A stretch of 64,000 nt of DNA from Bacteroidia bacterium (GCA_039937835.1 JBDTFR010000012.1:6143-70142), one strand, 5' to 3'. Numbered from the stretch's first letter, positions 3,861-46,026 are shown. Notes: generated by a model not told the origin, from the letters alone. Made by a program: numbers and translations.

Positions 3861-4505
3861 CTAAAAGGCGTATCCAATTGTTGCTTGAATCCATCTGTTT
3901 TTGTAACGTGGCGTTGAAGTTGTACCATCTCCATTATTTTGAGAAATATCCCAGCCTAATCTTCCGCTTATGATAAAGTGTTTTAAATTGATGTCAAGTC
4001 CACCAACTACACCGAACATATTTTTACGAATATTTTCATTCTTAAATTCCTGCTCTTGTTGTGTATTTATTATTGAACTTGTAAATTTATCATTTTGTTT
4101 AATAAGATAAGAATATTGTGGGCCAGCTAAAATAGTGATAAACTCACTAGGCTTAAGTGCTATTTGAAGTGGAATATCAAGATAAGAAGTGGTTCTTGTA
4201 ACCTTGTAAGGGCTACCAAGTAGCGTACCATTTGCTTGAAATCCCTTTTGTGAGAAAAGCACTTCTGGTTGAACTCCTAAATACTTTCCGATTGGAATTG
4301 CAAGAAACGCGCCCCCAACAAAACCAAATTTTCCATCCGCCTTAAATTTTTCGCCGTTAGAATCATATACGTTGGAGTTATTGACACCTACCTTTACACC
4401 AAATCGAAGACTTTCTCTGAAATCTGTTTCAGTTGTACTTTCCTGTGCCATACTGATACTTGTAACTGAAACAAGCAATGCAGCAAAAAATATTGATTTT
4501 TTCAT
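3861..4505 (-). CDS. Porin-family outer membrane beta-barrel protein (OMP_b-brl_2/PorT-like)
   Basis: Signal peptide; FGVKVGVN, VQPEVLFSQKG, YLDIPL, AGPQYSYL; C-terminal GYAF. Confidence 0.85.
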   Translation of the reverse strand: MKKSIFFAALLVSVTSISMAQESTTETDFRESLRFGVKVGVNNSNVYDSNGEKFKADGKFGFVGGAFLAIPIGKYLGVQPEVLFSQKGFQANGTLLGSPYKVTRTTSYLDIPLQIALKPSEFITILAGPQYSYLIKQNDKFTSSIINTQQEQEFKNENIRKNMFGVVGGLDINLKHFIISGRLGWDISQNNGDGTTSTPRYKNRWIQATIGYAF

Positions 4506-4749: not shown

Positions 4750-4939
4750 TTAAATTTCAGCAATAAGTTTTTTTATCTCTTCTTGTGTTTTGCCGATTTT
4801 TAACCTAAAGTCTACCTAACATTTCATCTCTCTTCCCTTATAACAATAGCACATTGCTGTCATTGAGCAAAGCAAATTTTTGTTTAAGTTTGTCTTTTAC
4901 TTCATTCCAATTTTTGTCTTTTTACGTTAAATTTCTCAT
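4750..4939 (-). pseudogene. csbD: CsbD-family general stress protein pseudogene
   Basis: Manual translation gives MRNLT*KDKNWNEVKDKLKQKFALLNDSNVLLL*GKRDEMLGRL*VK / IGKTQEEIKKLIAEI: three nonsense codons and one frameshift. Confidence 0.85.
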
Positions 4940-4974: not shown

Positions 4975-5039
4975 CAAAGATGAGTTAAGAAATAGCTTTT
5001 GTAGTTACAATATTTCTTTAATTAGTTACATTATACACA
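4975..5039 (-). promoter_or_regulatory. Conserved promoter/operator copy 1 (upstream of csbD-OMP)
   Basis: + strand CAAA 4975, GTTACA 5004 and 5025, ACACA 5035. Confidence 0.75.
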
Positions 5040-5062
5040 CATTTATAATTTAGTTTTGAACT

Positions 5063-5103
5063 AAAAAATCCTCTATTCTAAAAATAAAATAGAGGATTTT
5101 TTT
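5063..5103 (-). terminator. Intrinsic terminator after the two-domain ice-binding protein gene
   Basis: aaaaaatcctctatt / aatagaggatttttt inverted repeat. Confidence 0.8.
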
Positions 5104-5115
5104 ACCGATAAAGGC

Positions 5116-6735
5116 TTAATGCTGAGATATCATTTTCCCAGATTGTATCGTTTTTCCATTTCCAATCACTTTATAGAAATAAACGCCAGAAGGTAGATTA
5201 CTAGTTTCTATGGTAGTTGTTTGTTTAGTTATAACTGTGTTCATTACTATTTTTCCAAAAGTGTCGAACATATTTAATTCACAATTATGAATTTGAGATA
5301 AGTTATTTATTACGAGGGTAGTAGATGTATTGAAAGGGTTCGGATAAATTGCAATAGTTGCATTACCATCATCAAAAGATTCGATATCTGTGGCTAAACA
5401 ACCTGGAGTCATTGTAGCATTTATTGCAACTGTTCCTACTGCACCATTGGTGGCAAGTGCTCTGCCATTAAGGGTAACTCCAGTATTCAAATTTATAGCG
5501 CCATTGTTACAAATAATTGACCCGTTAAAAATAGAATAATCACTTAAACTTACTGCGCCTTCAATTTTCCAAAATACATTTTTAGCTTCTGCTCCATTAG
5601 TTAATATAACTTTTGCGTGTGTGCTAGTTGTAAGTGCGCCATTTATTTGTATAACAAATACTGCATTCGTATTACCAGCAGCATCCAAATAAAGTGTATC
5701 TGTAAATGTTGCAGCAGCCTTCATTATATATGTATGGGGTGTAAGAACAAGGTTTTTACCAAACTGTGCTGGATATAACAACTCAATATCATACGGTAAA
5801 GTATTAACGTACTTATAAACGTTCAGTAAATCTGCTGCACAGGCTGCTGTAGAGCCATCTGCGATTGGATGAATTTTACCAGTAACATTTAAAGGATTAT
5901 AACCAGTTGTTAAACCTACATTAGTTCCCACATCTCCTTTAATTGTTGAAATACCAGTGTTTGTAACTGGTCCATTACTAGAAAATACTGTATAACAAAC
6001 GGTAGAAACAAGATCAGGGGCTTTTGGTCCGCTAAGAACTATACTTCCGCAACCTACAGGAGTATATGCCAAAACACCAGCAACAGTAATTGCGCCAGTC
6101 GTAGACAATACTCTTCCTTCAAGCTTACTACCTGTACCCACTGTAATTGCAGCATTATTCGCTATAACAGTGCCTTTCATAGAAGTTCCTGAAGCCATGC
6201 TTACCAAACCTTCTACTTTCCAAAACACATTACATGCTAAGGCACCGTTAATTAATTTAATTTGTGAATTAACATTTGTAGATAAAGGTCCTTGAATTTG
6301 AAAGATAAATACTGAATTAGGATTACCTTTTGCATCTAAGTTGAGGTCTAAATTTAACGTTGCTGCACCCGTAATTGAATATACACCTGCAACAAACGTA
6401 GCTCCATTACCTAAAAGCGGTGCTGGAAAAATTGTAGCAATAGCTTTGTTTATTTGATTGTAAGCGATCAGCAAATCTGCTGAACATTTTGCACTTACGG
6501 TATCGTTGTCATGCATAACACCGTTCACATTACCAAAGGCAGTACTAGCACCTTTGTTAGAACCAACGTTCCCAGTGATATGCGAAATACCCGTATTACT
6601 AACTGCACCATTTGCAGAAAAGAGTGCAAAATTAGCTGTTGTTCCTAAGGTAGGCGTCTGGGCATTTGCAACATTGTAACATGCACCTATACCAGTAAAT
6701 GTTACAATTAAAATTGATTGTAGTAAATTTTTCAT
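5116..6735 (-). CDS. Ice-binding protein with two DUF3494 domains and a T9SS type-A C-terminal sorting domain
   Basis: Two copies of the DUF3494 pattern (LDAxGNxNxVFIFQIxG...NVFWKVEG...GRxLxTxGA); CTD IYPNPF...LPSGVYFYKV...KMI; signal peptide. Confidence 0.92.
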   Translation of the reverse strand: MKNLLQSILIVTFTGIGACYNVANAQTPTLGTTANFALFSANGAVSNTGISHITGNVGSNKGASTAFGNVNGVMHDNDTVSAKCSADLLIAYNQINKAIATIFPAPLLGNGATFVAGVYSITGAATLNLDLNLDAKGNPNSVFIFQIQGPLSTNVNSQIKLINGALACNVFWKVEGLVSMASGTSMKGTVIANNAAITVGTGSKLEGRVLSTTGAITVAGVLAYTPVGCGSIVLSGPKAPDLVSTVCYTVFSSNGPVTNTGISTIKGDVGTNVGLTTGYNPLNVTGKIHPIADGSTAACAADLLNVYKYVNTLPYDIELLYPAQFGKNLVLTPHTYIMKAAATFTDTLYLDAAGNTNAVFVIQINGALTTSTHAKVILTNGAEAKNVFWKIEGAVSLSDYSIFNGSIICNNGAINLNTGVTLNGRALATNGAVGTVAINATMTPGCLATDIESFDDGNATIAIYPNPFNTSTTLVINNLSQIHNCELNMFDTFGKIVMNTVITKQTTTIETSNLPSGVYFYKVIGNGKTIQSGKMISQH

Positions 6736-6774
6736 ATTATTTTAAGTTCAAATTGTAATTTAATTATTACGTTG

Positions 6775-6839
6775 CAAAATTCACTATATTGATCAAGACT
6801 GGTGTTACATATTTTTTTAAAAAAGTTACATTATTCACA
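6775..6839 (-). promoter_or_regulatory. Conserved promoter/operator copy 2 (upstream of the two-domain IBP)
   Basis: + strand CAAA 6775, GTTACA 6804 and 6825, TCACA 6835. Confidence 0.8.
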
Positions 6840-6876
6840 GCATTTTATTGATAAATTATTTTTTTTCATTGTATAA

Positions 6877-6917
6877 AATAAAAAGAGCGATGCCTACTTT
6901 GCATCGCTCTTTTTATT
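6877..6917 (-). terminator. Intrinsic terminator after the lipoprotein IBP gene
   Basis: Perfect 17-bp inverted repeat aataaaaagagcgatgc / gcatcgctctttttatt. Confidence 0.85.
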
Positions 6918-6931
6918 ATTCTAAATAATTT

Positions 6932-7684
6932 TTATTGTTTTACGATGTTATTACTTGCCAAAGTAACTGCACCCGTTCTTGCCAATGCCTTACCATCAAG
7001 TGTAGCGCCAGTATTGAAAGAGATTGATTGCATTACCATTACTGTTCCTTTAAAAACAGAAGTAGTTCCAAAAGTTGCAGAGCTTCCTACTTGCCAAAAA
7101 ATATTTGATGCTAATGCTCCACCAGCCAAGATAACTTTTCGTCCAGCAGTGCTTGTAAGCGTAGATGCTATCTGTACAATAAAGATTGCATTTGCTTTTC
7201 CTTTTGCATCAAAAGTAACATCTCCTGAGGATAGTTCTAATGATGAAGTAGATTTATAAAGCCCTGGAGTAAGTGTAAGTCCTCCTATGTTTCCTGACAA
7301 GGTAACAATATCAGTCGCAGTTCTACCAGCAGCATCATTATAAGCTGCGGTTAAAGCAAGTTTTGCTAGCGCGGCTGTTGTATCATTGATGTGTTGTTTA
7401 CCCACCAATATTCCCGGAGGAAACCCACCAACTGAAGTTCCAGGCGATAATCCTAAATCACCAGTAATGTTGGTTGCGCCCGTATTAGTAATACCAGAAC
7501 CTGCGAGAACAGCAAAGTCGGCAGCACCTGTAAGTGCCACTGTTGCTTGTACAGTTGTTTGAAGTGGTATTACGATTATAACATCAGAAGGTGGATTTGG
7601 ATCTTCCTTATCTTTTTTTTTGCATGCGCCTAATATAGTAACTGATGCAATTGCAATTACTGTTAATAATTTTACTTTTTTCAT
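6932..7684 (-). CDS. Ice-binding lipoprotein with a single DUF3494 domain
   Basis: Lipobox LGAC followed by KKKDKED; DUF3494 motifs FAVLAGSGITNTG, LTPGLYKS, NIFWQVGS, GKALARTGAVTL. Confidence 0.92.
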   Translation of the reverse strand: MKKVKLLTVIAIASVTILGACKKKDKEDPNPPSDVIIVIPLQTTVQATVALTGAADFAVLAGSGITNTGATNITGDLGLSPGTSVGGFPPGILVGKQHINDTTAALAKLALTAAYNDAAGRTATDIVTLSGNIGGLTLTPGLYKSTSSLELSSGDVTFDAKGKANAIFIVQIASTLTSTAGRKVILAGGALASNIFWQVGSSATFGTTSVFKGTVMVMQSISFNTGATLDGKALARTGAVTLASNNIVKQ

Positions 7685-7723
7685 CTTTTTATATTATGTT
7701 ATAAATGAATTTTTATAACAGCA

Positions 7724-7787
7724 CAAAGAAACAACTCTTAAAAAGAATGATGTTACATAAATTAAGGTAGAAGTTACATACTTCACA
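7724..7787 (-). promoter_or_regulatory. Conserved promoter/operator copy 3 (upstream of the lipoprotein IBP)
   Basis: + strand CAAA 7724, GTTACA 7752 and 7773, TCACA 7783. Confidence 0.8.
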
Positions 7788-7815
7788 CTTTTAAGAAAAG
7801 TGAAAGAGATTGAAA

Positions 7816-8797
7816 TTACGTTCTATCCATTTACTGATTCAATGCTTTTTACAATTTTTGATTTTGAAAAATGGTGGTGATGTTTTTTTGTAAACGTAGA
7901 AAATCGGTTTCACTTTTTTACCACATAAACAAATGCTTTATGGTGCATACAATTAACCGCTATGTCAATTTTATCTTGAGAGGACTGCATCAGATTCAGC
8001 ACCCGAACGCTCACCGTAATTTTCCCTTTGTTGTTGTAAATTTTACAGCGTTACTAAACAAATTTATGAAGTATAGCAGCTATGGATACTGCCATCTTAA
8101 AGGGTGTTTGCTCAAAAGTCATTTTCTCTGCATCTATTTTTGCCAAATCAAGAATATCGTTAATAAGCAAAATCAATGCGTCGCCACTCATTTTTATGGC
8201 CTGTAAATATTCCTTTTGTTTAACGGAGAGTTCTGTTTTCAACACTACTTTTGTAAATCCGATAATCGCATTCATGGGTGTACGAATTTCATGGCTCGTG
8301 TTCGATAAAAACTGCTACTTTGCTTTTACAACATCTTCTGCAATTCTGGTAGCATTTTTCGCTTCAACTGCAATTTCTGTTGCAAGCTCTGCAAATACTT
8401 TGGCTTCCGTCCAACTCTCTTTCTATTCTTTTTTGATCTGTAACGTCTCTAGCAACAATCACTACTCCTAAACATTCCCTAGATTGTCTTTATAAACGGA
8501 TCCATTGAATAATACATCGGTAAGTTTTCCATCTTTATGCAGCCGACATAGGGGGGAATCCGCAACAGTTCCTTTTGCAGAAACTTCTTGATAAACATCA
8601 TGCGCATTTTGCGGTTCAGTAAAATAATAAAAGAAATCAGTACCTGTAAGTTTTTCCTTTATTATTCCTGTAATGTTGCACTATGCCGCACTCATGTCAG
8701 TGATCTTACCTCAGGTATTAATGGTAACCGAAGGATCTAATCTAGCCTCAATTAAACTTCTTGCGTATTGAGATTCTTGTTTTGTTGTTGTTTCCAT
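7816..8797 (-). pseudogene. Decayed PAS sensor histidine kinase fused by deletion to the C-terminal half of a response-regulator receiver
   Basis: Manual translation: METTTKQESQYARSLIEARLDP...HKDGKLTDVLFNGSVYKD...VVIVARDVTDQK (PAS); K*QFLSNTSHEIRTPMNAIIG (HisKA); NAVKFT/KGKITVSV; then MQSSQDKIDIAVNCMHHKAFVYVVKSE (receiver end). Several stops, frameshifts and two deletions. Confidence 0.85.
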
Positions 8798-8798
8798 T

Positions 8799-9383
8799 TT
8801 ATCTTTTCATTTCGCATGAATTCCAAATTTCTTCAATGCGTGTGAGCTTTGTGTCTTTCAAGCGTTGAAAATGAGAAGGTGAAAGACCTGTAACTTTTTT
8901 AAACTGATTAGGTAAATGCGCTACATCGCTGTAATTTAATTTGTAAGAAATCTGTGTAAGATTAACTTCTTTATACAAGAGTAATTCTTTTACCCTTTCA
9001 ATTTTATGAACACTCATAAATTGTTGTATAGCAATACCTTTCAATTCTGAAAATATATTGGAAAAATACTTATAATCATGATCTAATTTTTCACTTACGT
9101 GATCATAAAAATTTATTTTAATTGGCTCTTCTGAATGATGAACCAATTCAATAATTGTAGTAATTATTTTCTAGATTAACATCGCTCGTTTGATATCCAT
9201 TAACTCAAGTCCAGAGTTGATCAATACAGTTTTTAAATGCTCCCGTTGTTCAATAGAAATAGTTTCCATTATTTCTACTTCGCCCAAATCGACTGCAATA
9301 AAATGCAACCCTAGCTTTGTTAACGCTTCTTTTACCGCCATTTTACAACGGCCACTCACCATATATTTTATATATAATTTCAA
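8799..9383 (-). pseudogene. AraC-family transcriptional regulator (HMA-like N-terminus) interrupted by one in-frame TAG
   Basis: ORFs 9171-9383 and 8799-9146 share a frame (585 nt total): MKLYIKYMVSGRCK...RAMLI*KIITTIIELVHHSE...LNYSDVAHLPNQFKKVTGLSPSHF; TAG at 9173-9171. Confidence 0.85.
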
Positions 9384-9412
9384 ATGGATTCTCTTATTAA
9401 AACGGATTGATA

Positions 9413-9476
9413 CAAAATTGTATAATTCAGATGGTCAACTATTACAAAATTTCAGAAAGAAACTACCTAAATCACA
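9413..9476 (-). promoter_or_regulatory. Conserved promoter/operator copy 4 (degenerate, upstream of araC)
   Basis: + strand CAAA 9413, ATTACA 9441, ACTACC 9462, TCACA 9472, with the same spacings as copy 3. Confidence 0.65.
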
Positions 9477-9617
9477 TTTTTCGGTTGTGTACAAAAATAA
9501 AAGAAAGATTAACCTATGCGGAGTGTTTAGTTTATTATTAACATATGTAAAGATATCATTAAAAAGGGACTACCTTTCTCGGGAATATATTACCGTTATA
9601 ATTAATGTTTAAAAAAA

Positions 9618-10024: not shown

Positions 10025-11206
10025 ATGAAAAGTAAGGAAGGTATAGAAGCTCTGTTTTTATATGCCACGGAAGGAATTATTGTAACTAATGAAAAAGGGG
10101 AAATAGTCAGAGTTAACCCAAGTGCGGAAAAACTTTTTGGCTATGATAAAGAAGAACTTGTTGGTCAAAAGATTGAAATGTTAGTTCCAACGAAGTTGAT
10201 GAGAAACCATTCTGGTTACCGCGAGAAATTTAATGGTAATCCGCATGCCCGTGCTATGGGTGTAGAAATAGAACTTTACGGATTAAAAAAAAATGGTGAA
10301 GAAATTCCTGTCGAGATTAGTTTAAGTCCGTATACTACTAATGAAAGTAAATTTGTAATCGCATTTATCATTGATATTTCCTTAAGAAAACATGCAGAAG
10401 AAAAATTAAAAAATTATTCCGCAGAACTTGAAACGCAGGTAAAAAACAGAACGCTAATTCTGGAAGAAGCTATTCAAGAATTGGAGAGAACTAAAAAAGA
10501 TTTGCATAATGCTTTAGAAAAAGAACGTGAACTAAATGAACTTAAAACTCGGTTTGTTTCAATGGCTTCGCATGAATTCCGCACACCACTAACAACAATG
10601 ATGTCTTCTTTATCGCTTGTAAACAAATATGCAGACTTAAACGATAGTGAAAATCGTACAAAACATGTGAGTAAGATAAAAACATCTATCAATAATCTTA
10701 CAGATATTCTGAATGACTTTCTATCAGTGAGTAAATTGGAAGAAGGTAAAGTTGAAAACATCTCGGAGCAAATAAATATGAAAGCCTTCGTTACAGATAT
10801 TATGTTAGAAATGAAGACCATGGCTACTGATGGACAAAAGCTAATCTATCAGCATATAGGAAGTGAAATGGCATTGATTGATAAAAAATTATTGAAAAAC
10901 ATACTATTTAATCTTATTTCAAATGCCATTAAGTTTTCACCTGAAAGTGGTATTATTGAAGTAACTACTCAAGTATCTAATTCAACAATTAAAATTTCAA
11001 TAAAAGATAATGGAATAGGTATTTCTAAAGAAGATCAGAAACACTTATTTGAACGATTTTTTAGAGGAAACAATGCTACTCATATTCAGGGAACTGGTTT
11101 AGGATTAAGCATCGTAACAAAATATGCTGAATTAATGAATGCTTCCGTTAACTATGAAAGTACAGAGAATAAAGGTTCAATATTTACGATCATAATTCCA
11201 CAATAA
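10025..11206 (+). CDS. PAS-domain sensor histidine kinase (FixL-like PAS)
   Basis: PAS (VNPSAEKLFGY...ELYGLKKNGEEIPVEISLS), H-box SHEFRTPL, N-box NLISNAIKF, G-boxes DNGIGI and GTGLGL. Confidence 0.93.
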   Translation: MKSKEGIEALFLYATEGIIVTNEKGEIVRVNPSAEKLFGYDKEELVGQKIEMLVPTKLMRNHSGYREKFNGNPHARAMGVEIELYGLKKNGEEIPVEISLSPYTTNESKFVIAFIIDISLRKHAEEKLKNYSAELETQVKNRTLILEEAIQELERTKKDLHNALEKERELNELKTRFVSMASHEFRTPLTTMMSSLSLVNKYADLNDSENRTKHVSKIKTSINNLTDILNDFLSVSKLEEGKVENISEQINMKAFVTDIMLEMKTMATDGQKLIYQHIGSEMALIDKKLLKNILFNLISNAIKFSPESGIIEVTTQVSNSTIKISIKDNGIGISKEDQKHLFERFFRGNNATHIQGTGLGLSIVTKYAELMNASVNYESTENKGSIFTIIIPQ

Positions 11207-11212
11207 ATCAAT

Positions 11213-12271
11213 ATGAAAAAAATATTACTAATAGAAGACAACAAAGACGTGCGAGAAAATACGGCAGAAATACTTAAACTTGCGCAATATGAAGTTCTAA
11301 CAGCTGTAAATGGAAAAGAGGGAGTGGAACTTGCACATCAAAATAAACCTGACTTAATCATCTGCGATATAATGATGCCAGTATTAGATGGGCATGGGGT
11401 ATTACACATGCTGTCTAAGAATGAAGAAACATCCAGTATTCCATTTATTTTTTTAACTGCAAAAGCTGAACGAACCGATATAAGAAAAGGTATGGAAATG
11501 GGTGCCGACGATTATTTGACGAAACCATTTGATGACGTTGAACTGCTAAATGCTATTGAAAGTCGGCTCAAAAAAAATGAGGTACTTCGAAGAGAATTTA
11601 CCAAAAATATGGAGGGTGTTAATAGCTTTTTAAATGAAGTTAAAAATATTGATTCATTAAAGAAACTTTCTGAAGACCGGAATGTAGTTAAGTACAAAAA
11701 GAAAGCTGATATTTATAAAGAAGGTAATTATCCAAAAGGTATCTATTTTATCAGTAAAGGAAAAATAAAAACATACAAAAGTAGCGACCTTGGAAAAGAG
11801 CTGATTACGGAACTACACAAAGAAGGTGACTTTTTCGGATACATTGCTCTATTGCAAGATGAGACCTACACCAGTTCAGCTAGTGCGTTGGAAGATTCTG
11901 AAATTTATATGATTCCGAAGGAGGATTTCTTTTCGCTGCTTTACAAAAATGCTGAAGTTTCAAAGAAATTTATAGAAATGCTCTCAAAGGATGCACGAGA
12001 AAATGAAATTCATTTAGTTCAATTGGCGTATAATTCGGTAAGAAAGAGAGTTGCAGAAGCTCTCTTAAAATTATCTGACAAGTATAAAAAAGAGGAAGAG
12101 CAAAAATTTAGTATATCTATTACCAGAGAAGATCTTGCAAACATTGTAGGTACCGCCACAGAAACGGTTATTAGAACGTTGAGTGATTTTAAAGAAGATA
12201 AACTTATTGAAATAGCCAATGGAAAAATTACCATTCTTAATTATGATAAATTAGCGAAATTGAAGAATTAA
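11213..12271 (+). CDS. Response regulator with REC, cNMP-binding and CRP/FNR HTH domains
   Basis: ILLIED, DIMMP, FLTAK, DYLTKPF; GDFFG; REDLANIVGTATETVIRTLSDF. Confidence 0.92.
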   Translation: MKKILLIEDNKDVRENTAEILKLAQYEVLTAVNGKEGVELAHQNKPDLIICDIMMPVLDGHGVLHMLSKNEETSSIPFIFLTAKAERTDIRKGMEMGADDYLTKPFDDVELLNAIESRLKKNEVLRREFTKNMEGVNSFLNEVKNIDSLKKLSEDRNVVKYKKKADIYKEGNYPKGIYFISKGKIKTYKSSDLGKELITELHKEGDFFGYIALLQDETYTSSASALEDSEIYMIPKEDFFSLLYKNAEVSKKFIEMLSKDARENEIHLVQLAYNSVRKRVAEALLKLSDKYKKEEEQKFSISITREDLANIVGTATETVIRTLSDFKEDKLIEIANGKITILNYDKLAKLKN

Positions 12272-44283: not shown

Positions 44284-46026
44284 CTACTTCACTTTAAAAA
44301 TTTTACCTTTAAAGTTATCGGTACCATTTTTTATCTCATAAAAATATGCGCCAGGAGCTTGTTTACTCATATCTAATTCATATTCTGATGGAGGTGTTTG
44401 CCATGTTATGGAATTAACTAATTGACCTGTTAATGAATAAATCTGAAGAGTACTATTTGTCTTACAATGCGATAATTCAAATGTTATTTTTTCAGCAAAT
44501 GGATTTGGATACGTTTTAATATTTATGAACTTCTGGATACGATCTTTTACCGAAACTGTTCCTATTGCTAGCTTTACCGCAGCCAATGCATCAATACGCC
44601 CGTTACCATAAGCATTATTAGGAATATCACTCCCCGGGAAACCTCCACAATTTTCCGATGATTTAAGTTTAACGGCGCTTTGTTTAATAATTTCCTCAAT
44701 CCGATCCACGTTGCCTGCTAAGCTAGGGTTTGCCGATATAACTAGGGCAACTACCCCAGCAACATGAGGCCCCGCCATACTAGTTCCACTCATTGTTTTA
44801 TAACTATTACCAGGTATACATGAATATACGTCTGATCCTGGCGCACTAATATCTGGGCTAATTTTAGTAGGTCCATAATTAGTAACAGGGCCTCTACTAC
44901 TGAAGCTTGAAGTAGCATCGGTGCTAGTGGTAGAACCTACTGTAAAACTTGCTGTAAATATGGCAGAAGGGTTTTTAATAGTAGAGCAGGATGGACCGTC
45001 GTTTCCAGCAGAGACTACTACTACTACGCCAGCATTTCTAAGGTTTTCAACGGCTTTTTCCATTGCAGGAAAGTTACTACTATTACAACCTTCTGAAGTA
45101 GGGCATTCCCATGAATTGTTAATTACATGAGGGGCTTTTAATGGATCTGGGTTTTGGTTAGAAAGATCTGTAGGAGCTAAAAACCACTCGAATCCTTCTA
45201 CATACATTGAAAATTTCCCCGCTCCAACATTCATGTTTCTACAACCAATCCATTTTGCTTCTGGTGCCATCCCTATTTGATTGGATCCTCCATCATAGCC
45301 TATTATTGTACCCATGGTATGAGTTCCATGTTCCTGATCATCACATGGGGCTTTCGTATTTGCACCACATTTACTACCTCCACCTGTTTTAACACAATCA
45401 TGCCAGTTATAATTATGATCTACAGTTGTTCCATTACCTCGGTATTGCTTATTAATGGCAGGGTGTGTCCACTCATATCCTGTATCTTGGCCACCAACCA
45501 CTACTCCTTGTCCCTTATACCCTAATGCCCAAACAGCATCTGCCTGTGTCTTTTTCACACCCCAAGCAATTCCTCTTTGCAGTGTATTGCTTACAGATTG
45601 ATTTGATGGAATGGGTTTAGACATTACATATTTAGCATTTTCTATAATTTGTGCTACTGATTCTAATTGAGCTACTTGATTTAAAATATTATTATCGCCT
45701 ACAATGGATACCGCATTTATAATCCAAAAAGATTGATATTCTGCTTTTAGTTTATTTAATAGTGAAAGTATTGGTTCTTGAGTGTTTTTTGCTATTTCAG
45801 TAAGTTTTTTAAATACATATACCCCTTTTTCTTCTTTTGTAAAACTGTTGGGTGTAGCGGTGTTAGCTTGCTCCTTTAAAATAGCGACAAATTCTGTTTT
45901 ATCATTTATTTGTAATTTTTGTAACACAACTGGGTCAATCTTTAACTGCCAATCCGCAGATTGAGAGAAGCTTGTAAATGAAATGCTAAGCAATAATAAC
46001 GTAATAGTTAAATAATATTTGTTCAT
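44284..46026 (-). CDS. S8 subtilisin-like serine peptidase with T9SS CTD, copy B
   Basis: QDTG, HGTHTMG, SGTSMAGPH; CTD; co-linear paralog of 42411-44156. Confidence 0.95.
   Translation of the reverse strand: MNKYYLTITLLLLSISFTSFSQSADWQLKIDPVVLQKLQINDKTEFVAILKEQANTATPNSFTKEEKGVYVFKKLTEIAKNTQEPILSLLNKLKAEYQSFWIINAVSIVGDNNILNQVAQLESVAQIIENAKYVMSKPIPSNQSVSNTLQRGIAWGVKKTQADAVWALGYKGQGVVVGGQDTGYEWTHPAINKQYRGNGTTVDHNYNWHDCVKTGGGSKCGANTKAPCDDQEHGTHTMGTIIGYDGGSNQIGMAPEAKWIGCRNMNVGAGKFSMYVEGFEWFLAPTDLSNQNPDPLKAPHVINNSWECPTSEGCNSSNFPAMEKAVENLRNAGVVVVVSAGNDGPSCSTIKNPSAIFTASFTVGSTTSTDATSSFSSRGPVTNYGPTKISPDISAPGSDVYSCIPGNSYKTMSGTSMAGPHVAGVVALVISANPSLAGNVDRIEEIIKQSAVKLKSSENCGGFPGSDIPNNAYGNGRIDALAAVKLAIGTVSVKDRIQKFINIKTYPNPFAEKITFELSHCKTNSTLQIYSLTGQLVNSITWQTPPSEYELDMSKQAPGAYFYEIKNGTDNFKGKIFKVK

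Follow-up and report, generated by a model that had tools for sequence, protein, structure and literature searches.

A composite promoter-operator, aA.GTGTGAATnATGTAAC-N15-TGTAACAc-N20-CAyCTTTG, precedes genes for DUF3494 (ice-binding-like) proteins and stress-type proteins in a Bacteroidia bacterium (GCA_039937835.1) and in many related soil and water bacteria, and its presence tracks that of one small AraC-type regulator, although the copy of this regulator next to the sites described here is broken. The window analyzed is a stretch of 64,000 nucleotides (JBDTFR010000012.1:6143-70142), and positions are counted from its first letter. Literature searches found no description of this element, nor any published regulator or operator for DUF3494 genes.

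The promoter-operator sites

The initial annotation claimed that four promoters next to an araC gene share one precisely spaced operator, and this observation holds, although only three of the four sites are significant on their own. On the + strand, GTTACA starts at 5004/5025, 6804/6825 and 7752/7773, the members of each pair being 21 bp apart, while the fourth, degenerate pair consists of ATTACA at 9441 and ACTACC at 9462. ACACA or TCACA lies at 5035-5039, 6835-6839, 7783-7787 and 9472-9476, and CAAA (TTTG on the coding strand) at 4975, 6775, 7724 and 9413. The upstream pentamer had been given as TGTGA in the coding-strand pattern; at the csbD site it reads TGTGT. The features are summarized in Table 1.

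Exact TGTAAC-N15-TGTAAC occurs three times on both strands of the 3.82-Mb genome (68% A+T), and all three lie in this 2.8-kb stretch. Of eight other spacings tried, seven gave no occurrence and one gave a single occurrence; the hexamer itself occurs 2014 times. Within the window there are four matches at up to one mismatch, against a mean of 0.45 in 100 dinucleotide shuffles, none of which reached four; the fourth match, at 45920, lies in coding DNA and looks like chance. The 17-position pattern TGTGA-N4-TGTAAC-N15-TGTAAC at up to one mismatch has three hits in the genome, all of them here, against none in three whole-genome shuffles. The site before araC has four mismatches of 17, a level found 203 times in the genome where about 181 are expected, and is believable only because intact orthologs carry a good site at the same place.

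Table 1. Features of the cluster and its neighbors; matrix scores refer to a matrix built from relatives.
Feature	Coordinates	Strand	Description	Evidence
Promoter-operator 1	4975..5042	-	Before the csbD pseudogene and the barrel gene; TGTGT-N4-TGTAAC-N15-TGTAAC-N25-TTTG; -7 box CATCTTTG	Matrix score 42.7 bits
Promoter-operator 2	6775..6842	-	Before the 539-aa DUF3494 gene; TGTGAATAATGTAAC-N15-TGTAAC-N25-TTTG; -7 box GAATTTTG	Matrix score 43.2 bits
Promoter-operator 3	7724..7790	-	Before the 250-aa DUF3494 lipoprotein gene; same boxes as promoter-operator 2, but N24 to TTTG; -7 box TTTCTTTG	Matrix score 28.8 bits, lowered by the 1-bp shorter spacing
Degenerate operator	9413..9479	-	Before the araC pseudogene; TGTGA-N4-GGTAGT-N15-TGTAAT-N24-TTTG; -7 box CAATTTTG	Matrix score 10.5 bits
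AraC-family regulator pseudogene	8799..9383	-	Small HMA-like N-terminal domain and two-HTH DNA-binding domain; in-frame TAG at 9171-9173, where all 47 aligned relatives have Glu71	Read through its stop: Pfam HTH_18 51.1 bits (cut-off 33.6), HTH_AraC 28.4 bits (cut-off 26.6); long branch in the tree
PAS hybrid histidine kinase remnant	8060..8788	-	Shifted frames and stops; about 240 of 781 residues of the ortholog are left	HisKA fragment; stretch 8025-8803 identical in contigs of a second sample
Receiver-only response regulator remnant	7822..7993	-	Residues 88-144 of a 145-aa ortholog, in two frames	tblastn
DUF3494 (Ice_binding) lipoprotein	6932..7684	-	Intact, 250 aa	Pfam PF11999 211.2 bits (cut-off 28.7); 71% identical to the ortholog in genome G018 over its full length
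Protein with two DUF3494 domains	5116..6735	-	Intact, 539 aa, with T9SS C-terminal sorting domain	Pfam PF11999 251.3 bits in two stretches (cut-off 28.7); Por_Secre_tail 44.5 bits; 63% identical to the G018 ortholog
csbD pseudogene	4766..4939	-	Three in-frame stops and a frameshift	Three-frame translation; weak tblastn match to the G018 CsbD
Outer-membrane beta-barrel gene	3861..4505	-	Intact, 214 aa; in relatives co-transcribed with csbD	Pfam OMP_b-brl_2 73 bits; 57% identical to the G018 ortholog that follows csbD there
PAS kinase and receiver-cNMP-Crp regulator	10025-12271		Intact neighbors of the cluster	Pfam

Conservation and geometry of the motif

A strict 20-position version of the pattern, at up to one mismatch, is present in 33 of 68 genomes of the genus, with up to 14 sites per genome and no hits of the reversed control. 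In the class it is found in 58 of 401 genomes and 33 of 199 genera, with two control hits. Positions not used for selection are also conserved: in 78 non-redundant sites from the genus the TT of the TTTG lies at N25 in 78 of 78, and A-2, G0, A6, T7, A9 and C58/A59/C61 are conserved as well. In 68 sites from other families TTTG lies at N25 in 52 and at N24 in five. By this geometry the proximal box occupies the place of the upstream promoter element at a fixed distance from the downstream one, as in a class II (-35-overlapping) activator-dependent promoter. Only two of the 68 sites have TTTG in the -33 zone, as expected for activator-dependent promoters.

The element does not conform to the primary-sigma promoter of Bacteroidota, which has TTTG at -33 and TAnnTTTG at -7. 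The TTTG of the -7 box and its distance from the -33 zone are shared, and TTTG-N18-21-TAnnTTTG is enriched 1.5-1.9 fold over shuffles in this genome; however, the TA is replaced, the four bases before TTTG being CATC, GAAT, TTTC and CAAT in the window and CAyC in the consensus. The two halves of the operator are not simple repeats, since GTGTGAAT occurs only at the distal box, and within the genus an inner inverted repeat, AACTT..AAGTT, is conserved, which leaves room for a second factor.

Among 138 non-redundant first downstream genes, 39 encode Ice_binding (DUF3494), 11 CsbD, nine AraC, nine receiver, eight OmpA, seven barrel, four PD40, three YtxH, two YceI and two PAS proteins, in a tally that covers 25 of 45 families. 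The cluster in G018 has the same gene order as the window. The regulon is not specific to ice-binding proteins; DUF3494 is the commonest target of a class-wide, stress-type regulon.

Association with a small AraC-family protein

In the genus, 27 of 27 genomes with an ortholog of the AraC protein (E <= 1e-68) carry the strict motif, compared to six of 41 without. Among the 401 class genomes (E <= about 1e-70), 43 have both a high-scoring AraC and the motif, 31 the AraC only, 15 the motif only and 312 neither (odds ratio 29). For the motif and DUF3494 the corresponding numbers are 42 with both, 16 with the motif only, 26 with DUF3494 only and 317 with neither (odds ratio 32). The E-value cut-offs were chosen after the gap in the scores had been seen, and related genomes are not independent. 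Thirty ortholog loci were searched for the conserved protein start, which was not found in genomes G070, G288, G198, G208 and G021; of the remaining 25 loci, 13 have a site with at most three mismatches 52-77 nt (mostly 52-60) upstream of the start, in several families.

In the present genome all ten matrix hits above 10 bits lie 37-3763 bp from one of seven copies of this AraC family, in five separate places, and the paralogs carry variant boxes. AraC is the only protein with a DNA-binding domain that Pfam found in the clusters examined. The protein is about 190 aa in length. A model of the ortholog predicts a 62-residue HMA-like ferredoxin fold at the N-terminus and a two-HTH DNA-binding domain; the model has seven helices and its fold matches the DNA-binding domains of AraC, AdpA, MarA, SoxS and Rob (target-normalized TM 0.7-0.8 for AraC, AdpA, MarA and SoxS).

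The association is not without exceptions. Genome G001 has 14 strict sites but no AraC in a 99%-complete assembly; a site at the start of its contig C36 points off the contig, and the co-operonic receiver is missing too, such that an assembly gap is plausible but unproven. Genomes G048, G059 and G061 also have sites without an ortholog. Since the AraC gene is itself part of the co-inherited cluster, co-occurrence would also arise if another factor were the binder.

Decay of the local module

The araC gene of the window, a member of the AraC/XylS family by its two-HTH domain, has no intact reading frame, whereas all 47 relatives aligned are intact. Eight of 55 invariant positions are changed, including the Glu71 replaced by the stop. 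An intact paralog elsewhere in the genome (G000:C47:28954-29526, on contig C47) keeps 54 of 55. The sites here score in the low tail, at 29-43 bits against a median of 60 for the training sites.

The interpretation offered in the initial annotation, namely that an autoregulated AraC, with a PAS kinase and receiver, switches on weak promoters for ice-binding proteins, CsbD and an outer-membrane barrel, is partly supported. The comparison with other genomes agrees with it, since the same motif, at a fixed distance from a TTTG -7 box, precedes DUF3494 genes, csbD, barrels, the AraC gene itself, receivers and the PAS kinase in many genomes. It is not supported as written for this genome, where the kinase and receiver are deletion remnants, csbD is a pseudogene and the operator of araC is degenerate; this AraC therefore cannot be what switches the promoters on here.

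Proposed mechanism

The best explanation, to which we assign a probability of roughly 0.75, is that the element is a composite, activator-dependent promoter of Bacteroidota type, with a distal box GTGTGAATnATGTAAC, a proximal box TGTAACAc exactly 21 bp downstream, sitting where the -33 element would be, and a non-consensus -7 box CAyCTTTG exactly 25 bp (rarely 24) further on. It marks a regulon that is conserved and probably horizontally spread across the class, the targets of which are DUF3494 ice-binding-like proteins, CsbD, YtxH, YceI, OmpA-like proteins, outer-membrane barrels and the regulatory genes themselves. The most likely binder is the small AraC-family protein encoded in the cluster, with its HMA-like N-terminal and MarA-like two-HTH domains. 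We infer that two molecules occupy the two TGTAAC boxes, that the proximal one replaces the missing -33 contact in the manner of a class II activator, and that the gene activates itself. A PAS hybrid kinase and receiver-only proteins in the same cluster are inferred to supply the signal, and the regulon content suggests freezing, desiccation or osmotic stress. In this genome the two DUF3494 genes and their operators are intact and are therefore either served in trans by the paralog on C47 or are silent relics. The motif, its geometry and conservation, the gene content, the co-occurrence and the gene decay rest directly on the sequences analyzed, whereas the identity of the binder and its binding, for which the co-occurrence and the co-location of paralogs with variant boxes give only indirect support, activation and its dependence on the AraC, the signal and action in trans are inferences from sequence alone, no RNA run being listed for this stretch, and family membership does not show that the DUF3494 proteins bind ice.

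A more speculative and rather doubtful extension is that a horizontally mobile regulon for freezing or desiccation stress is spread across Bacteroidota, in which a new AraC subfamily with an HMA-like sensor domain, fed by a PAS hybrid kinase and receiver-only proteins, acts as the dedicated transcriptional switch for bacterial ice-binding proteins. In this view its paralogs, each with its own box variant beside BON, SPFH, YceI and similar genes, would together make up the stress-response system that this phylum, which lacks RpoS and sigma-B, has not been shown to have.

Alternative explanations

It is possible, though less likely than not, that in this genome the four sites are non-functional relics, and that the DUF3494 promoters are silent and will decay. 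The broken regulatory module, the low scores against the class matrix, the rarer N24 spacing of one site and the degenerate araC operator are consistent with this. On the other hand, both DUF3494 reading frames and the barrel gene are full length, all six TGTAAC hexamers of the three sites are perfect, the C47 paralog is intact, and the matrix finds a further good site (46 bits) on contig C102.

An unlikely alternative is that the motif is read by another factor, either an unrecognized DNA-binding protein or a dedicated sigma factor that recognizes TGTAAC at -33 and CAyCTTTG at -7, the AraC being only a regulon member inherited with the cluster. The non-consensus bases C58, A59 and C61 are conserved more than a merely weak primary-sigma promoter would need, the inner inverted repeat suggests a dimeric factor, and the genomes listed above, together with 15 of 58 motif-positive class genomes, have sites without the AraC or a high-scoring AraC. 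However, Pfam found no sigma factor or other DNA-binding domain among the cluster genes examined, the tally of first downstream genes covering only 25 of 45 families. Variant boxes lie beside each of five separate copies of the AraC family in this genome, which is hard to explain unless the family reads such boxes. Furthermore, the spacing from box to TTTG fits the -33/-7 geometry of the primary sigma of Bacteroidota and not the 16-17 bp of ECF sigma factors.

Control by the neighboring PAS kinase and receiver-cNMP-Crp regulator through TGTGA, which is the CRP half-site, is very improbable: full-length orthologs at 60-84% identity are found in most genomes without the motif and none is found in the motif-rich genomes G018, G019, G023, G028 and G032, and the operator is a direct repeat with no TCACA partner at N6 and thus not a CRP/FNR operator (TGTGA-N6-TCACA). 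Chance in AT-rich intergenic DNA is refuted for the three strong sites by the shuffles, the reversed-pattern controls and the conserved flanking positions.

Relationship to other regulatory systems

AraC/XylS-family activators such as AraC (I1-I2), XylS (at Pm), RhaS and MelR act at tandem direct repeats overlapping the -35 region. The present system shares with them a two-HTH domain, two like boxes 21 bp apart in direct orientation, the proximal one abutting the upstream promoter element, and likely autoregulation. It differs in the HMA-like N-terminal domain, which is not a cupin or sugar-binding domain, in the Bacteroidota -33/-7 type of promoter and in the extra GTGTGAAT element, and its binding is putative. 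MarA, SoxS and Rob (PDB 1bl0, 7w5w and 1d5y are among the fold hits) are likewise small AraC-type proteins, whose DNA-binding domain alone is nearly the whole protein and which govern a scattered stress regulon through an asymmetric box of about 20 bp near the -35 region. Here there are two boxes instead of one, a sensor-like N-terminal domain and a linked two-component system, and the targets are envelope and ice-binding proteins, not efflux or redox genes.

Response regulators with an AraC output domain (YesN and AraT type; PDB 3lsg and 6swi are the best sequence and fold hits) also combine an AraC DNA-binding domain with a histidine kinase and a receiver, but in the present case the receiver is a separate protein of 145-163 aa, and any communication with the AraC is inferred. 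The gene content (CsbD, YtxH, YceI, OmpA-like, BON and Dps-like proteins) overlaps with that of general stress regulons (sigma-B of Bacillus, RpoS, PhyR-NepR-EcfG). In contrast to these, the proposed control is by an AraC-family transcription factor and not by an alternative sigma factor, DUF3494 proteins are the main cargo, and the distribution is patchy. LytTR-type operators are direct repeats with a 21-bp period; however, the five cluster receivers scanned with Pfam and NCBIfam show only a receiver domain, and no LytTR appears in the 25 families listed among the first downstream genes.

Significance

This work supplies a defined operator of about 65 bp, a candidate regulator and a candidate sensor kinase, all conserved in dozens of genera, and thereby a first handle by which the regulation of bacterial DUF3494 proteins becomes directly testable in any culturable carrier. 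It also gives a sequence signature for finding co-regulated genes of cold, freeze or desiccation survival in soil and polar Bacteroidota, and shows a natural case where the targets outlive their local regulator. It points to a family of small AraC regulators as a possible stress-response layer in a phylum where none is defined.

Sequence and gene content of the region

The initial annotation described one precisely spaced operator shared by four promoters at this locus, and the region reads as it was described. On the coding (minus) strand, three putative promoters carry TGTG(A/T)-N4-TGTAAC-N15-TGTAAC followed by TTTG after 25, 25 and 24 bp; these precede csbD, the 539-aa DUF3494 gene and the 250-aa DUF3494 gene, respectively. 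A fourth site, before araC, is degenerate, with GGTAGT and TGTAAT in place of the two TGTAAC boxes. The numbers exclude chance for the three strong sites. Exact TGTAAC-N15-TGTAAC occurs three times in the whole 3.82-Mb assembly, all of them here, whereas seven of the eight other spacings gave no occurrence and one gave a single occurrence. The 17-position pattern at up to 1 mismatch gives three hits, all here, against none in three genome shuffles. The window holds four matches at up to 1 mismatch against 0.45 expected, and none of 100 shuffles reached four. By contrast, the araC site has four mismatches, which is background level (203 found against about 181 expected).

Coordinates of the genes, remnants and sequence elements (window positions unless a contig of this genome, C, or another genome, G, is named)
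Position	Strand	Feature	State or remark
3861-4505	-	Outer-membrane barrel	Intact
about 4766-4939	-	csbD	Three in-frame stops and a frameshift
5116-6735	-	Two DUF3494 domains plus a T9SS sorting tail	Intact
6748-6770 and 7697-7718	-	Palindromes GTAATAATTAAATTAC and GTTATAAAAATTCATTTATAAC	At the place of the conserved post-TTTG element
6932-7684	-	DUF3494 lipoprotein	Intact
7800-8790	-	PAS hybrid kinase and receiver	About 240 residue-equivalents of a 781-aa kinase, and the last third of a 145-aa receiver, in shifted frames
8025-8803		Stretch of the kinase remnant	Letter for letter the same in contigs of a second sample of the same study
8799-9383	-	araC	One internal TAG
9171-9173		TAG of araC	Covered only by the run that may be the source
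10025-12271	+	PAS kinase and receiver-cNMP-Crp regulator	Intact
C22:69438-70304		Intact AraC paralog and variant boxes
C40:5237-6007	-	Third DUF3494 gene, 348 aa, single domain	No trace of the motif
C47:28954-29526		Intact AraC paralog	Changed at 1 of 55 invariant columns
C47:28954-30778		Intact AraC paralog and variant boxes
C47:51758-53893		Intact AraC paralog and variant boxes
C102:8674-9657		AraC remnant and best-scoring site of the genome	46 bits
G002:C11:14140-14301		Four head-to-tail copies of a 42-bp unit	Tandem repeat unrelated to the promoters

The agreement of the kinase remnant between the two samples indicates that it is not a one-off assembly error; the runs compared were all contigs, and the parts left without cover in three of them are uninformative. 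No RNA run was listed among the sequencing runs for this stretch. Reassignment of a stop codon as the cause of the in-frame stops was considered and rejected, since the same genes also carry frameshifts and large deletions, the neighboring genes end at ordinary stops, and orthologs have Glu at the position of the araC stop. The nonsense codons in csbD and araC fall where relatives have Glu or Gln, meaning single first-position changes to T in GAA, GAG or CAA type codons, the easy route to a stop in an AT-rich genome. Internal stops initially reported for orthologs of the AraC are, for the copies that were translated, only the natural stop at the gene end.

Distribution and structure of the motif

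A loose pattern hits 38 of 68 genomes of the genus, with up to 16 sites each, while a stricter 20-position pattern hits 33 of 68, with no hit of the reversed control; extending the scope to the order returned the same 68 genomes. The eight loose-pattern hits of G044, a potential counter-example, disappear with the stricter pattern, and the tandem repeat of G002, whose unit contains TGTTACATGTGTAAC...GATGTAAC, matched the loose pattern. In an even sample of the class, the strict pattern is present in 58 of 401 genomes and 33 of 199 genera, across many families, with two control hits in the table.

From 20 fetched loci 86 sites were taken, of which 78 are non-redundant. The logo is aA.GTGTGAATnATGTAACttaTt..aAaAGTTnTGTAACAc-N20-CAyCTTTG. 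Positions that played no part in selecting the sites are strongly conserved: A-2 in 73 of 78, T7 in 77 of 78, TT of the TTTG at N25 in 78 of 78, and C58 in 59, A59 in 72 and C61 in 62 of 78. In 68 non-redundant sites from nine genomes of other families, TTTG is at N25 in 52 and at N24 in 5, and only 2 have a TTTG where a -33 box would be. From the sequence this is a composite promoter of fixed geometry and not a repeat element, because the spacer letters vary freely.

Many of these promoters also carry a conserved tGAAAATTAATTCAc about 4 nt after the TTTG, which could represent a second operator or a leader element at the 5′ end of the mRNA. That it forms an RNA hairpin with compensatory changes was not borne out: the exact form GTGA[AT]-N4-9-[AT]TCAC is found in 20 of 78 sites, with looser forms in many more, and the rest look like a conserved sequence rather than a covarying stem. 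A search against Rfam revealed no family at gathering scores in the window or in two of the fetched loci (L065 and L075).

Downstream genes

The first open reading frame follows 30-130 nt after the motif. Among 138 non-redundant first genes, Pfam identifies Ice_binding (DUF3494) in 39, CsbD in 11, AraC in 9, receiver in 9, OmpA in 8, outer-membrane barrel in 7, PD40 in 4, YtxH in 3, and YceI, PAS and collagen repeats in 2 each. Single scans added bestrophin-like, UbiA and DUF218 proteins. In G018, a relative, the cluster runs AraC-B, AraC-A, PAS hybrid kinase, receiver, HisKA fragment, PD40-OmpA, DUF3494 (251 aa), DUF3494 (534 aa), CsbD, barrel and YtxH, with the motif before six of the units; the window is a shortened, decayed version of the same gene order.

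DUF3494 is present in 68 of the 401 genomes of the class sample. Of the 58 genomes with the strict motif, 42 have DUF3494 and 16 do not, compared with 26 and 317 of those without the motif (odds ratio 32). Of the 26 DUF3494 genomes without the strict motif, 14 have a high-scoring AraC, which suggests diverged boxes. Not all ice-binding-like genes belong to the regulon: the third DUF3494 gene of this genome, on contig C40, has the best Pfam score of all but no site.

Candidate regulator

The small AraC-family protein fits on four counts. Within the genus, the 27 genomes with an ortholog at E <= 1e-68 all carry the strict motif, against 6 of 41 without, the cut-off having been set at the gap in the scores after these were seen; of the six, G002 has a split copy and G037 has a fragment at a contig end. 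In the class sample, 74 genomes have the AraC at E <= about 1e-70. Of these, 43 carry the motif and 31 do not, compared with 15 and 312 of the remainder (odds ratio 29), while 50 have DUF3494 and 24 do not, compared with 18 and 309 (odds ratio 36). All three features occur together in 36 genomes. Thirdly, in 13 of the 25 ortholog loci where the conserved start could be found, a site with at most 3 mismatches lies 52-77 nt before the start, in keeping with autoregulation; elsewhere a receiver gene or another gene precedes the AraC.

The fourth line of evidence comes from the paralogs in this genome. A matrix built from relatives gives 10 hits above 10 bits, all of which lie 37-3763 bp from one of the seven copies of this AraC family, at five separate places: the window; C102, beside an AraC remnant; C47 near 30 kb, before a BON-domain gene; C47 near 52-54 kb; and C22. 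Paralogs with variant boxes next to them are what one expects if the family reads such boxes. The C102 site lies 159 bp after the remnant and precedes a Met-rich 143-aa lipoprotein and, after that, a small membrane protein, homologues of which also follow sites in genomes G074 and G365. The boxes beside the intact paralogs on C47 and C22 score 10-26 bits and precede the BON-domain gene, a 301-aa membrane protein and other genes.

Kin are not independent and the AraC gene belongs to the co-inherited cluster, so that the distribution counts alone cannot prove binding. Counter-examples also remain. G001 has 14 strict sites but no AraC in a 99%-complete assembly; a site at the very start of its contig C36 points outward, and the receiver that is co-operonic with AraC elsewhere is missing too, making an assembly gap plausible but not shown. 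G048, G059 and G061 likewise have sites without an ortholog. The adjacent receiver-cNMP-Crp fusion can be dismissed as the regulator, since full-length orthologs, at 60-84% identity, are conserved in most genomes of the genus whatever their motif status, including most motif-less genomes, and none is found in the motif-rich G018, G019, G023, G028 and G032.

Predicted structure and relationships of the AraC protein

The model of the ortholog has a mean pLDDT of 84.6 and reveals a beta-alpha-beta-beta-alpha-beta domain (residues 1-62), a linker helix and a seven-helix AraC domain. Foldseek places the C-terminal part with AraT, AdpA, AraC, MarA, SoxS and Rob, and the N-terminal part, weakly, with the metallochaperones Atx1, CopZ and HAH1 (E 0.02-0.15, target-normalised TM 0.6-0.7). 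A single invariant cysteine, Cys13, sits in the loop where HMA domains have their metal-binding CxxC motif, and is a possible redox or metal input. NCBIfam returned only generic AraC hits below cut-off and no specific model, and the ESM Atlas only generic AraC clusters of Bacteroidota. Complex prediction for the AraC with the 163-aa receiver gave no answer (score 0.00), which is no evidence either way.

Across families the protein is up to 92% identical. Its third-codon-position identity between families (0.46-0.65) is the same as within the genus (0.51-0.61), the ungapped value for G174 being ignored as an artefact of an indel, and the main clade of a quick tree mixes families. Both observations hint at horizontal spread of the cluster.

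State of the module in this genome

Against 55 columns invariant in 47 relatives, the window AraC is changed at eight: E71stop, K74I, S93Y, T105K, T118A, E144Q, S153D and S158P. From our reading of the model and of MarA, T105K, S153D and S158P lie in the two recognition helices. The window copy sits on a long branch (1.05 against a median of 0.24). The three sites score 43, 43 and 29 bits, against a median of 60 for the training sites. Either the intact paralog on C47 serves these promoters in trans, or they are relics; the evidence does not decide between the two, and the relic reading is possible but, in our estimate, less likely than not.

Proposed mechanism and relation to known systems

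What the analysis establishes is the boxes, their geometry, the absence of a -33 box and the unusual -7 box. The remainder is inferred from the behavior of AraC-family class II activators: two molecules would bind the direct repeats, the proximal one touching RNA polymerase in place of a -33 contact; the gene would activate itself; and the PAS hybrid kinase and the receiver-only proteins would modulate it. The gene content points to freezing, desiccation or osmotic stress as the signal. Standing outside this scheme are the extra GTGTGAAT at the distal box, the inner AACTT/AAGTT inverted repeat within the genus, the conserved CAyC of the -7 box and the conserved tGAAAATTAATTCAc after the TTTG. 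The initial annotation had inferred an autoregulated AraC acting with a PAS kinase and receiver, an interpretation that is supported only in part, as comparison among genomes favors it whereas the local copies of all three genes are broken.

Full-text literature searches on DUF3494 proteins with AraC, regulation or two-component systems, on ice-binding protein promoters and transcription in flavobacteria, on TGTAAC in Bacteroidetes, and on CsbD with YtxH and AraC or with ice-binding proteins, found no regulator or operator for DUF3494 genes, although these were judged largely from search listings and without supplementary files, which could hold relevant gene lists. One paper (PMC3914696) notes an ice-binding gene next to PAS/GAF two-component sensors on a genomic island of Psychroflexus torquis, but no AraC and no operator.

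On present evidence the system would work like an AraC-family class II activator regulon, although the window gene, as a member of that family, is not intact. The system differs from those already described in its AraC subfamily, its operator and its class of targets, each of which we regard as new, and the paralogs with their variant boxes suggest a family of sister stress regulons.
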